Part shown: in pieces, positions 1 to 5,451 of the stretch
How the letters are laid out: each line of letters starts with the position of its first letter
How positions within the stretch are numbered: position 1 is the first letter of the stretch
Assembly (NCBI RefSeq): GCF_000196355.1
Contig: NC_007614.1
Location: 2,100,001 to 2,132,000, forward strand
Source of the DNA: Nitrosospira multiformis ATCC 25196
GTDB lineage: Bacteria > Pseudomonadota > Gammaproteobacteria > Burkholderiales > Nitrosomonadaceae
Reading direction: 5' to 3'
DNA: 32,000 bases
The notes under the pieces: generated by a model
Seen by the model: only the letters and a program-made list of their open reading frames with translations
Database searches by the model: none
What the model was told of the DNA's origin: nothing
Program-made: the position numbers and the translations under genes

Positions 1-1887
1 GACGCTCACGCCCTTTGGTTTACCTGTGGAGCCTGAGGTATAGATGACATAGGCAAGGTTGTGTCCATGCAGGACGGCTTGCGGATTGCTGTCGGATTCA
101 TCCTCGAGGTCGAGCCTGTCCAGCTCCAGCACCGGATATTGGCCGGAGTGGGGAATGCGCGATCGAACCCGGCTTTGCGTCAGCAACAGCCCGATGCCAC
201 TGTCTGCCACCATGTAGGCCAGCCGCTCCTGCGGATATTCCGGATCAAGCGGCACATATGCTCCGCCCGCCTTCAGGGTGGCAAGCAACCCCACCACCAT
301 GTCGATCGAGCGCTCCACCGCAATGCCCACCTTGACCTCCGGCCCAACCCCAAGCCTGATCAAACGGTGCGCCAGGCGGTTCGCCCTTCGGTTCAGCTCG
401 CCGTAGCTCAATTCGACATCGCCAAAGATCAGGGCAATCGCTTCCGGCTGGACTTCAACCTGCCGCTCGATCAGCCTGTGCACGGGCTCGGTATTGGCGT
501 AGCGCTGCTCGTTGATCCCCCAGGCCTTGAGCTGCGCCCGCTCGGCTTCACTGAGGATGTCGATGTCGCCAAGGTTCTGCTGCGGATGCTCGGCCAGTTG
601 CTCCAGAAGAAGCAGATAATGGTTGCCAAGCCGCCCAATGGTGGCAGGTTCAAACAGCTCGGCGGCATAGGTGAAGGTGGCTTCCAGCCTGCCATCGGGC
701 TGCTCGACCGTATCCAGGGTCAGTTCGAACTGCGCCGCCTGCTCGCTCAGCTCGTGATTTTCCACCTTGAGCCCGGGCAATTGCTCGAGTGCCCGGTAGT
801 CTTCGCGCAGGTGGTTGTACATGACCTGAAACAGAGGATTCTGATTCAGGTTGCGTTCGGGTTGCAGGGCTTCAACCAGTCGCTCGAACGGCAAATCCTG
901 GTGGGTCTGGGCACCCAGCGCTGCTTCCCGCGTCTGATCGAGCAACGTATGCAGGGACATGCGCCCATCCATGAGGGTGCGCAATACCTGGGTATTGACG
1001 AAGAAGCCGACGATGTTTTCTATTTCAGCCCGATGCCGGTTGGCAATCGGCACGCCCACGCGGATATCCCGCTGGCCGGTATAGCGATAGAGCAGGCCTT
1101 GAAAGCCCGAGAGCAGCGCCATGAACAGGGTCGCTCCCTGGCTTTGCGCCTGACGCTGCAAGCGTGTAACCAGACCCGCAGGTAATGTGAAGGTGTGGCG
1201 CGCCGCACGGTAACTGGCCCTGGAAGATCGGGGGTGATCGGTGGGCAATTGCAATACCGGGTGCTCTTCCCCCAACTGGCTGCGCCAGTAGGCCAGCTGG
1301 CGCTCTTTTTCTCCCGCTTCCAGCCAGTTGCGCTGCCATATCGCGTAATCGGCATACTGGATCGGCAGGGCCGGCAGGGAGGGTTCCTGCCCCTGTTTCT
1401 CCCCCTCCTGCTCCTGCTGCACCCGTGCCCGATAGTGGGCGGCAAATTCGTCAATGACAATGCGGTTGGACCAGGCGTCCGAGATGATGTGGTGCATCAC
1501 CACCACGAGAAGATGTTCTTCCGCTGCAATGCGGATGAGGGCAACCCGAAGCAGCGGGCCTTGCGTCAGATCAAAGGGCGTGCCGGCTATCCGGCCCGCT
1601 TCTTCACCGGCTTGCGCTCTGGCTTGTTCCAGCGGCAGTCCGGAAAAGTCGGTCAGCGGAATTTCAAGCCGCGGCTCGTCTTCGATGATCTGCTCCGGCA
1701 ACCCTTCCGAATTGACCCTGAATATCGTACGCAACGACTCATGCCGCCTGCCCAGCGCCGCAAAGCTCCAACGCAGCGCTTCAATATCCACCCTGCCCGT
1801 CAGCCGCAATCCCCCGCTCAAATGATAAGCCGTGCTCAACGGCTCCAATTGCCATAAAAACCAGTGACGCTCCTGTGCGTATGAGAG
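1..1887. repeat. Intragenic long direct repeat, copy A (in the truncated NRPS gene)
   Basis: Offset of +3423 to copy B. Nt 161-1887 appear identical to 3584-5310: all overlapping six-frame ORF pairs have identical translations (for example 471..695 = 3894..4118, 1020..1460 = 4443..4883, 1195..1857 = 4618..5280), and spot checks of the raw lines agree. Nt 1-160 vs 3424-3583 show 22 mismatches by my count (about 86% identity). Similarity ends abruptly after 1887. Confidence 0.95.
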
Positions 1888-2034
1888 TGCGCTACGGTTT
1901 CCCGTTTTTTGCGGAACAATGGGAAGAAGAGAAAAATCGAATCCCCGTTTTTTCAGGGCATTCAGGAATTCTTTCTGTTTCTCGGGAGCAAGGGCTGCGA
2001 ACCGCTCGGCAATATCCTGCTTGTTCAATTCCAT
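1..2034 (-). CDS. Non-ribosomal peptide synthetase, N-terminal part (unique N-terminal linker/docking region, C domain, first third of A domain); 3' end lies beyond the window
   Basis: ATG at 2034-2032 directly abuts the TGA (2037-2035) of the upstream NRPS. My translation: [71 protein letters not shown]... The frame stays open to nt 1, where it reads [20 protein letters not shown] (A-domain core A3). It is absent from the ORF track only because it has no in-window stop. From aa 50 onward it is the same sequence as the 2035..5451 product. Confidence 0.9.
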   Translation of the reverse strand, partial: [678 protein letters not shown]

Positions 2035-5000: not shown

Positions 5001-5451
5001 GCGTGCCGGCTATCCGGCCCGCTTCTTCACCGGCTTGCGCTCTGGCTTGTTCCAGCGGCAGTCCGGAAAAGTCGGTCAGCGGAATTTCAAGCCGCGGCTC
5101 GTCTTCGATGATCTGCTCCGGCAACCCTTCCGAATTGACCCTGAATATCGTACGCAACGACTCATGCCGCCTGCCCAGCGCCGCAAAGCTCCAACGCAGC
5201 GCTTCAATATCCACCCTGCCCGTCAGCCGCAATCCCCCGCTCAAATGATAAGCCGTGCTCAACGGCTCCAATTGCCATAAAAACCAGTGACGCTCCTGTG
5301 CGTATGAGAGCGGCACCCGCGCGGAAGCATTGCGGCAAGGGATATTCGATTGAAGTGCTGGAGCATGAGCTCCGGCCAGCCGCTGCGCCAGCCTCTCCCG
5401 TTGCTCGGGGGTCAGGCGGGCGCGTCTTTGAACTAGACTGCTGCTATGCAT
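2035..5451 (-). CDS. Non-ribosomal peptide synthetase, one module C-A-T
   Basis: 1138-aa ORF. C domain about aa 47-490 (nt 3982-5313): [24 protein letters not shown]. A domain about aa 515-1025 (nt 2377-3909): [84 protein letters not shown]. T domain about aa 1040-1108 (nt 2128-2334): FFELGGHSL. Acidic C-terminal tail [21 protein letters not shown]. Confidence 0.95.
   Translation of the reverse strand: [1138 protein letters not shown]
3424..5310. repeat. Intragenic long direct repeat, copy B (in the C-A-T NRPS gene)
   Basis: See copy A. It corresponds to aa 48-676 of the 1138-aa NRPS, that is the C domain, the C-A linker and the A domain up to core A3. Confidence 0.95.

Follow-up and report, generated by a model that had tools for sequence, protein, structure and literature searches.

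A perfect 1727-nt tract in two adjacent NRPS genes of Nitrosospira multiformis ATCC 25196, a probable new example of concerted evolution by gene conversion

NRPS C and A domains are known to undergo concerted evolution, for instance in the daptomycin/A54145/CDA and syringopeptin systems (Medema et al. 2014, PMC4256081). There, domains of one cluster or genome branch together whatever their place in the assembly line, whole sets of them are homogenised, and duplicated modules seem to be caught in a cycle of divergence and internal recombination. A breakpoint hotspot between motifs A2 and A4 was reported in NRPSs of Pseudomonas, Bacillus and Streptomyces, including those of pyoverdine, from events detected statistically (RDP4) over many clusters; the A domain was treated as mobile in these systems, and A cores that differ in specificity had C domains in common (Calcott et al. 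2020, PMC7486941). The mobile unit in the literature is either the A core by itself or an A domain with its linker (Calcott et al. 2020; Baunach et al. 2021, PMC8097286). In A-core subdomain swaps, described also by Crusemann 2013 and Kries 2015 as related in PMC8097286, the native C-A linker and interface remain intact while the variable A core differs, and mosaic genes result; the core is exchanged between modules or clusters and the product is altered (Baunach et al. 2021). For mcyB1/mcyC of microcystin synthetase, Fewer et al. 2007 (PMC2174460) describe recombination between two modules of one NRPS cluster, whereby an A domain was replaced and the chemistry of the product changed. GRINS, which occur in assembly-line clusters undergoing gene conversion, are defined as duplicated sequences longer than 500 bp and more than 80% identical, with mean absolute GC skew and mean absolute TA skew above 0.15 (Nivina et al. 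2021, PMC8256042).

Here we describe two adjacent NRPS genes, A and B, of the soil nitrifier Nitrosospira multiformis ATCC 25196, found at one end of a window of 32,000 nt. The two genes share a perfect 1727-nt tract, and comparison of sequences within and between genomes makes it very probable that the C-to-A2 segments of two old modules have been repeatedly homogenised by gene conversion. The phenomenon is already known, and the tract is a new example of it and no new mechanism. As in the systems of Medema et al., modules of one genome have been homogenised, but divergence here is zero, both tract ends are known to the exact nucleotide, and the event took place in an ammonia oxidiser. Homogenisation is also confined to the C domain, A1-A2 and, probably, A7-T; orthology persists in the heads and in the A3-A6 core. 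In agreement with the hotspot of Calcott et al., the ATCC 25196 tract ends between A2 and A3, a second tract in strain FNKY ends in A3, and C domains are common to A cores of different specificity; we deal, however, with one fresh intragenomic event in which the C-A(N) chassis is shared. The linker and interface are intact here as in the subdomain swaps, yet it was the flanks that moved and the core that stayed, and in contrast to the mcy case the specificity cores are untouched. The original prediction had likened the tract to an exchange unit, and this link is only partial, the shared piece being a chassis complementary to the mobile A core of the literature. XU fusion reportedly lies in the C-A linker and XUC fusion between two C subdomains, in work of Bozhuyuk et al. 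from 2018 and 2019; the present tract ends elsewhere, upstream at C1 and downstream within the A2-A3 loop. In length, identity and setting the tract resembles GRINS, but its mean absolute GC skew (0.103) and TA skew (0.129), taken in 150-nt windows with 30-nt steps, both fall short of the threshold and do not differ from those of non-repeated parts of the cluster (0.077-0.137 and 0.103-0.117, respectively).

The genes belong to a hybrid NRPS-PKS island on the minus strand (Table 1), the product of which is probably a siderophore; a literature search did not find this cluster or its product characterised. For the gene A-specific part, a Pfam search returned AMP-binding, AMP-binding_C and PP-binding. 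The ATG of gene B at 2034 abuts the TGA of gene A (TGAATG), and the same-strain contig FNVK01000038.1 carries gene B for 659 nt beyond window position 1. An exact-protein look-up for gene B matched only the 18.8-kb draft contig, and the 897-aa fragment of gene B had no 100% match in a homologue search. Pfam search at E <= 0.001 detected no named docking-domain family in the head of either gene. Our motif-anchored reading of the pocket residues was D-G-E-D-H-G-T-V-T for gene A versus D-G-E-C-T-G-G-I-T for gene B. NRPS1 of the same island stands outside the homogenised family, at about 67% nt identity.

Table 1. Features of the NRPS-PKS island in the window (positions are those of the window)
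Feature	Position	Strand	Description
Gene B	1..2034	-	C-A... NRPS; 5' 678 codons in the window, cut at left edge
86% zone, gene B side	1..160	-	Cut by window edge; about 40 nt more in FNVK01000038.1
Tract copy in gene B	161..1887	-	aa 50-625; probable recipient
Gene B N-terminal head	1888..2034	-	49 aa, B-specific; presumed docking to gene A C-terminus
Gene A	2035..5451	-	C-A-T NRPS, 1138 aa; ABB75127.1 / WP_011381147.1
Gene A-specific part	2035..3423	-	A core after motif A3 (A4 to A10), T domain, C-terminal tail (...ELLDLLES)
86% zone, gene A side	3424..3583	-	A2-A3 loop and motif A3; an older, partly decayed homogenised tract
Tract copy in gene A	3584..5310	-	aa 48-623; probable donor
Gene A N-terminal head	5311..5451	-	47 aa, A-specific; presumed docking to upstream PKS
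Upstream assembly line	5518..17550	-	mbtH, type II thioesterase, PPTase, NRPS1, PKS
PKS (KS-AT-KR-ACP)	10242-5518	-	
NRPS1 (A-T-C-A-T)	15647-10242	-	
PPTase	16526-15684	-	
Type II thioesterase	17278-16514	-	
mbtH	17550-17275	-	

Direct comparison of 161-1887 with 3584-5310, at an offset of 3423, gave 0/1727 mismatches, thereby bearing out the predicted identity with no difference scattered through the tract. Both copies are in frame (nt 142-1868 of gene A) and code for a complete C domain, the C-A linker and, beyond it, the A domain as far as A2, with A1 included. The tract starts at the first residue of the C1 core motif (aa 48 of A and aa 50 of B), so that the unique N-terminal regions measure 47 and 49 aa as foreseen. 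Beyond 1888/5311, 5' of the tract in the genes, identity dropped to 19-34% per 100 nt, which is the random level and agrees with the predicted lack of similarity there; the heads themselves are 20% identical in amino acids. Since the heads of genes A and B are unrelated, a heteroduplex cannot run further upstream, and this end of the tract is the edge of homology. The breakpoint claimed to lie exactly where the C domain begins was thus correctly placed, at C1, but was not a chosen breakpoint. Similarity of gene A to the B orthologue begins at the same place in FNKY (L035 10145). The other end (aa 623 of A) falls inside the A domain between A2 and A3, as had been proposed, 27 aa past motif A2 (aa 585-596) and 35 aa ahead of motif A3 (aa 658-673).

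In the adjoining 160 nt, direct comparison of 1-160 with 3424-3583 showed exactly the 22 substitutions announced (86.25% identity), which make 8 synonymous and 10 non-synonymous codon differences. At this divergence of 13.75%, an unbroken run of 1727 identical sites has a probability of about 1e-111. The argument that zero differences beside 14% divergence imply recombination therefore held, though the 14% itself is no background level. The original prediction could not look beyond position 1; on the longer contig of the strain, the zone of about 86-89% identity stops just after motif A3 (about gene nt 2040), beyond which genes A and B are 39-50% identical in nt. Within it, the ATCC 25196 paralogues are 89% identical as against 63% for the gene A orthologues of ATCC 25196 and FNKY, and by this comparison the zone is an older, partly decayed conversion tract and not background divergence. 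A-type and B-type alleles of the zone sit in different modules in FOHI and FPBZ.

The distribution of identity by gene type and by genome separates conversion from its alternatives. In the protein matrix, heads are 15-28% identical between A- and B-type and 51-96% within type (A-type genes, 51-96%; B-type genes, 70-94%), and A3-A8 cores are 38-45% identical between types versus 77-93% within type. The C-to-A2 segment ignores type: the A and B proteins of ATCC 25196 are 100% identical in it, the three units of FNKY are 94-100% identical to one another, and the two strains are 77% identical. The segment of the B-type protein P0001 is likewise closest to A-type proteins (92% to P0006). At the DNA level, a sliding window gave 100% for the paralogues in the tract and 63-84% for the orthologues of ATCC 25196 and FNKY, a relation that was reversed in the specificity core (roughly A4-A6), where gene A orthologues are 67-82% and paralogues 39-50% identical. 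Hence, in the tract, paralogues within a genome are closer than orthologues between genomes, whereas the flanking heads and cores keep their positional orthology, which is the pattern of conversion. B-type genes of other lineages have C-to-A2 segments 74-87% identical to that of ATCC 25196. The B head, the C-to-A2 segment and the B core occur together in FNKY, P0001 and P0002, with heads 70-76% and cores 85-88% identical to ATCC 25196 gene B but segments only 74-82% identical. In P0011 and P0037, the sequences of which stop before the core, a B head (91-94%) is joined to a segment of only 84-87%. Gene B is therefore old: orthologues of both its head and its specificity core occur in other lineages, and only its C-to-A2 segment is young.

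A second tract was found in FNKY (L035, a 3.47-Mb contig), where gene A and an extra gene, A2, are identical over 1982 nt (10018-11999 versus 13501-15482). This tract spans gene nt 18-1999, taking in the head and stopping in motif A3; gene A2 has an A-type head and a third kind of A core. Its boundaries are abrupt, and its ends and its partner gene differ from those of the ATCC 25196 tract. The events in the two strains were therefore independent, and the second one shows that the process is ongoing. FNKY also shows a mosaic relation to its B orthologue, at 92-94% and with perfect runs of up to 332 nt. Among the strains compared, the closest to ATCC 25196 are FNQL, FOHI and FPBZ, which are about 4-7% diverged in the cluster, differ in module content, and are without a B-type gene or have scaffold gaps.

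A recent duplication, which the original prediction had kept beside conversion, would have derived gene B from the 5' part of gene A, its head and A core being imported later. Gene A2 of FNKY, with its perfect copy and its different core, shows that duplication with core exchange does occur in this family, and module content varies from strain to strain. Gene B, however, is no duplicate devoid of an older orthologue with the same head and core: the B-type arrangement of FNKY, P0001 and P0002 is far older than the tract. A single replacement of the middle is also more parsimonious than separate imports on either side of it. We consider a recently duplicated or chimeric gene B very improbable, and with old orthologues for its head and core the duplication alternative as first put forward is rejected.

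An assembly artefact, by which a lone C-A unit had been duplicated in the assembly or two similar ones merged into a common consensus, is more improbable still. Short-read assemblers can indeed pop small bubbles between near-identical copies, and a number of further drafts that carry the name N. multiformis are interrupted right at the repeat: FOHI and FNQL have runs of N after motif A3, and P0009 lies on an isolated contig of 1820 nt resembling a collapsed repeat. Gene A is nevertheless recorded on the 3,184,243-bp contig of ATCC 25196. This contig is the finished genome of 2005, and the claim of zero differences rests on it, as short-read assemblies may smooth away a few differences between copies. 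A later draft of the strain (GCA_900108135.1) agrees with the window at every one of 18,124 nt, the two copies among them, so that both junctions are present in two separate records. In the Logan read graph, unitig SRR4235482_120 matches the window from 18034 to 5281 and ends 30 nt inside the repeat; a stop at exactly k-1 proves that the reads contain the repeat in two distinct left contexts, with a true fork at 5310/5311. A third data set, SRR9437466, matched without a difference across the gene A junction and through 1370 nt of the tract. Contig SRR9437466_401 crosses the 5310 boundary without a fork, but it comes from a run of undefined nature and coverage and was taken as uninformative, not as speaking against a second copy. 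A single context of the repeat was thus not what the reads or the independent assemblies gave, and the same kind of perfect tract stands within the 3.47-Mb contig of another strain. Three independent data sets answer the original concern about assembly error, reasonable as it was. Purifying selection alone, acting on a segment that encodes catalytic core motifs (C1, HHxxxD, A1, A2), has practically no probability and is refuted by the divergence between orthologues, since synonymous sites are fully identical between the copies and the same segment differs by 16-37% in nt and 23% in protein between ATCC 25196 and FNKY, about as much as the A core.

Recent homologous recombination or conversion with defined ends, as originally proposed, is supported by the comparison across strains. 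Under concerted evolution by gene conversion, which we hold very probable, genes A and B would be two old, distinct modules, each with its own docking head and substrate-specifying A core. Their C domain, C-A linker and A1-A2 would have been homogenised repeatedly in each genome by non-reciprocal homologous recombination, presumably of RecA type, acting between direct repeats 3.4 kb apart. The 1727-nt identity would represent the latest event, in which the gene A copy most probably overwrote that of gene B. Extension upstream would have been blocked at the C1 motif, where homology stops, and resolution downstream would have taken place in the variable A2-A3 loop, inside the older and slightly longer tract now at 86%.

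Gene A was probably the donor and gene B the recipient. Between ATCC 25196 and FNQL, FOHI and FPBZ, respectively, identity is 96.1%, 94.7% and 94.2% in the tract, measured against their gene A copies, and 94.7%, 94.9% and 92.6% in the adjoining PKS gene. The tract has thus diverged from sister gene A copies to the same extent as the flanking gene, which points to gene A as the donor, presuming that these sister copies were not themselves converted by other modules. In the closest B-type relative, P0011, the head is 94% identical to that of gene B but the tract only 87%. The strains compared include no relative of more than 99% identity with a B-type gene, and date and direction are not fixed directly.

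The locus shows, very cleanly, an assembly-line enzyme in the course of concerted evolution. It also provides natural junctions, at the C1 motif, in the A2-A3 loop, at motif A3 and probably at A6/A7, where one C-A(N) chassis pairs with two specificity cores and two upstream partners. This supports the view of C domains as non-strict gatekeepers (Calcott et al. 2020; Baunach et al. 2021), and such junctions could guide engineering. If the assembly line is colinear, as we presume, one identical C domain would take its donor from a polyketide-ACP in gene A and from a peptidyl-T in gene B.

It is conceivable, though we hold it rather doubtful, that the whole Nitrosospira/Nitrosomonas cluster family works as a natural plug-and-play system. 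The chassis (C, C-A linker, A1-A2 and probably A7-T) would then be kept near-identical across modules by frequent conversion, while docking heads and A3-A6 specificity cores would act as stable cartridges. Whole modules would be gained and lost between strains through the same direct repeats, as gene A2 of FNKY and a two-module gene of 2513 aa in FPBZ suggest, and strain-specific siderophores would follow, as with the pyoverdines. If the line is colinear, the one C domain, given a beta-hydroxyacyl-ACP by the PKS in gene A and a peptidyl-T in gene B, each with another acceptor amino acid, would be a clean natural proof that it is no gatekeeper.

The two-module gene of FPBZ may stem from a genuine deletion between repeats or from a collapse during assembly. 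It is because of the repeats that draft Nitrosospira genomes break or gap at this locus (FOHI, FNQL, FNVK and the orphan contig of 1820 nt), and module counts taken from such drafts are not to be trusted.

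Self-comparison of the window at an offset of 3423 nt revealed 0 mismatches over the 1727 nt shared by gene B (161-1887) and gene A (3584-5310), an exact zero that rests on the finished genome, as short-read assemblies might mask a few differences. The adjoining 160 nt (1-160 versus 3424-3583) carried exactly 22 mismatches (13.75% divergence), and past 1888/5311 the identity of the two genes was at random level. These counts reproduced, to the base, the identical tract, the 22 substitutions and the loss of similarity beyond 1887/5310 claimed in the original prediction. At the divergence of the adjoining zone, 1727 identical sites in a row would arise with a probability of about 1e-111. 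Residue 1 of the C1 motif (aa 48 in gene A, aa 50 in gene B) marks the beginning of the tract, and its other end follows aa 623 of gene A, between motifs A2 (aa 585-596) and A3 (aa 658-673), where the second breakpoint had been expected. It thus codes for an entire C domain, followed by the C-A linker and the N-terminal portion of the A domain. The heads upstream of it (47 aa and 49 aa) are mutually unrelated at the protein level, in agreement with the unique N-terminal regions proposed earlier. A breakpoint had also been placed at the start of the C domain; the position was right, but this end is an edge of homology, as A/B similarity has its upstream limit at the C1 motif in both ATCC 25196 and strain FNKY because homology stops there.

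Features of the cluster and its surroundings (window positions unless stated otherwise)
Feature	Position	Strand	Remarks
mbtH	17550-17275	minus	
Type II thioesterase	17278-16514	minus	
PPTase	16526-15684	minus	
NRPS1	15647-10242	minus	A-T-C-A-T, 1801 aa
PKS	10242-5518	minus	KS-AT-KR-ACP, 1574 aa
Gene A	5451-2035	minus	C-A-T, 1138 aa; ABB75127.1 / WP_011381147.1
Gene B	from 2034	minus	C-A...; ATG at 2034, directly after gene A stop (TGAATG); leaves window at left
Contig-end stretch	L040 (FNVK01000038.1) 18692-18783		568-659 nt left of window position 1; gene A counterpart window 2732-2823
IS30-family insertion sequence	18006-19269		between mbtH and FecR/ECF-sigma genes
IS30 transposase ORF	18087-19229	plus	HTH_38 and rve domains
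IS30 terminal inverted repeats	18014-18054 and 19220-19260		41 nt, imperfect
ORF, 169 aa	28249-28758	plus	no Pfam match; unrelated to the repeat
ORF, 178 aa	30871-31407	minus	no Pfam match; unrelated to the repeat

Gene A is recorded (ABB75127.1) on the 3,184,243-bp chromosome of Nitrosospira multiformis ATCC 25196. That the two-copy arrangement is real follows from three further data sets. Contig FNVK01000038.1, which comes from a later draft assembly of this strain (GCA_900108135.1), matched window 18124-1 at 100%, both copies included, and reached 659 nt beyond the window edge. The Logan read-graph unitig SRR4235482_120 matched window 18034 to 5281 and stopped exactly 30 nt into the repeat (k-1, with k = 31), which is the behaviour expected of a de Bruijn graph at a true fork. 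In another run, SRR9437466, one contig agreed exactly with the window across the gene A junction and for 1370 nt of the tract. The later draft, the forking unitig and this contig thereby dispelled the earlier suspicion of an assembly error.

To place the repeat among its relatives, strains FNKY (GCA_900103165.1, 3.47-Mb contig, locus L035), FOHI (L036), FNQL (L043) and FPBZ (L044) were compared, together with a dozen homologous proteins. In a protein identity matrix, heads sorted strictly by type, that is, by resemblance to gene A or gene B (15-28% between A-type and B-type, 51-96% within type). The A3-A8 cores were 38-45% identical between types, 77-93% among A-type and 84-90% among B-type proteins. 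The C-to-A2 segment sorted by genome and not by type: the two ATCC 25196 copies were 100% identical, and gene A, the extra gene A2 and the gene B orthologue of FNKY were 94-100% identical mutually, while ATCC versus FNKY reached only 77%. Even the B-type protein P0001 had an A-type protein, P0006, as its nearest relative in this segment (92%). At the DNA level, in 150-nt windows, the paralogues were 100% identical where gene A orthologues were 63-84% identical, and this relation was reversed in the specificity core (roughly A4-A6). Sorting by type in head and core and by genome in the C-to-A2 segment implies that gene B is far older than the tract. A recent duplication, the alternative originally offered, was rejected, as gene B has its own head and core that are much older than the tract. 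Selection as the cause of identity was rejected too, since synonymous sites in the tract are identical within a genome yet diverge freely between genomes. Judged from these alignments, the middle segment of gene B appears to have been overwritten, a case of concerted evolution by gene conversion; the pattern of identity within versus between genomes bears out the proposed recent conversion event with defined ends.

Identity of the ATCC tract to the sister-strain copies of gene A was 96.1% for FNQL, 94.7% for FOHI and 94.2% for FPBZ, comparable with the adjacent PKS gene (94.7%, 94.9% and 92.6% in the same order). The nearest B-type relative, P0011, was 94% identical in the head but only 87% in the tract. 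This places the tract in the gene A lineage and makes gene A the probable donor, with gene B as the probable recipient. For 0 differences in 1727 nt the upper 95% bound is about 3 differences (0.17%), as against a divergence of about 4-6% for the sister strains. We estimate that the time since the conversion is at most a few percent of that since the sister strains split.

FNKY carries a perfect tract of its own, of 1982 nt (L035 10018-11999 versus 13501-15482), shared by gene A and A2 and extending from codon 6 to motif A3. A2 (L035 13484-16807; C-A-T) lies between gene A and the gene B orthologue and combines an A-type head with an A core of a third kind. Compared with A and A2, the FNKY gene B orthologue is mosaic in structure: overall identity is 92-94%, single windows vary from 79% to 100%, and perfect runs reach up to 332 nt. 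The events in ATCC 25196 and FNKY differ in both partner genes and tract ends. In the 160-nt zone of ATCC 25196, the paralogues were 89% identical versus 63% for gene A orthologues, and its A-type and B-type alleles occupy different modules in FOHI and FPBZ. The 86% zone is accordingly an older conversion tract, partly decayed.

Using the FNVK01000038.1 extension, the 86-89% zone was found to stop just past motif A3, after which genes A and B are 39-50% identical at the nucleotide level (42% at the protein level for the A3-A8 core). This contig ends within motif A7 (YRTG) of gene B, immediately past 50 nt that match gene A perfectly, and scaffold gaps in FOHI and FNQL span only the A3-A6 interval. 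Together, these ends and gaps suggest that, beyond the window edge, genes A and B share a second homogenised tract reaching from A7 into the T domain. In FNKY, gene A and the gene B orthologue are 96-100% identical in the A7-to-T region.

Internal recombination leading to concerted evolution is documented in NRPS and PKS clusters (Medema et al. 2014, PMC4256081), and a breakpoint hotspot at A2-A4 is known from Pseudomonas, Bacillus and Streptomyces NRPSs (Calcott et al. 2020, PMC7486941). The main pattern described by Baunach et al. 2021 (PMC8097286) is that the native C-A linker is retained while the A cores vary. The present case is a new, unusually crisp example of an already known process. 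The repeat does not qualify as a GRINS, as its mean |GC skew| (0.103) and mean |TA skew| (0.129) are both below 0.15. It had been likened to an exchange unit; a shared piece does exist, but it coincides with neither of the engineered XU and XUC units and is better described as a common chassis. The tract ends may be useful when choosing recombination junctions, and the repeat is a warning on draft assemblies of this cluster.

Module content varies among strains all labelled N. multiformis, as in FNKY and FPBZ. FPBZ (L044 6001-13542) has a single 2513-aa C-A-T-C-A-T-TE gene with the head and chassis of gene A on a different core, reflecting either a real deletion between repeats or assembly collapse. 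In FNKY, the gene A orthologue (L035 10001-13365) is broken by a frameshift, giving products of 871 and 266 aa; either the gene is a pseudogene or the long contig contains a sequencing error. The 90%-identity cluster of gene A also contains P0122 (WP_431835329.1), a 486-aa C-domain fragment labelled Enterobacter ludwigii and located on a 1460-nt contig, most likely a contamination of that assembly.

Several assembly-line genes abut or overlap: genes A and B at TGAATG (2032-2037), NRPS1 and PKS by the common base 10242, and the thioesterase and PPTase genes by 13 nt (16514-16526), which suggests translational coupling of consecutive genes. GC content of the NRPS/PKS island (window 1-17550) is 57-60% versus 51-54% in the flanks (17551-21000 and 28001-32000), a contrast consistent with horizontal acquisition. 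Between N. multiformis strains, the cluster is about 95% identical and the adjacent efflux genes 99.75%. At its borders the island has an IS30-family element, together with an ECF sigma/FecR pair and an RND efflux system. In a sister strain, a TonB-dependent receptor and a lysine/ornithine N-monooxygenase come after the cluster, and the product is therefore likely to be a hydroxamate-type siderophore. A literature search found no publications on this cluster or its product. At the IS30 site, FNQL has 282 unrelated nt, and the element is the break point of both re-sequenced ATCC draft contigs and of Logan unitigs. The 169- and 178-aa ORFs adjoin a DUF3501 gene and a gene for a CCG-domain protein with a weak 4Fe-4S dicluster (Fer4_8) match.
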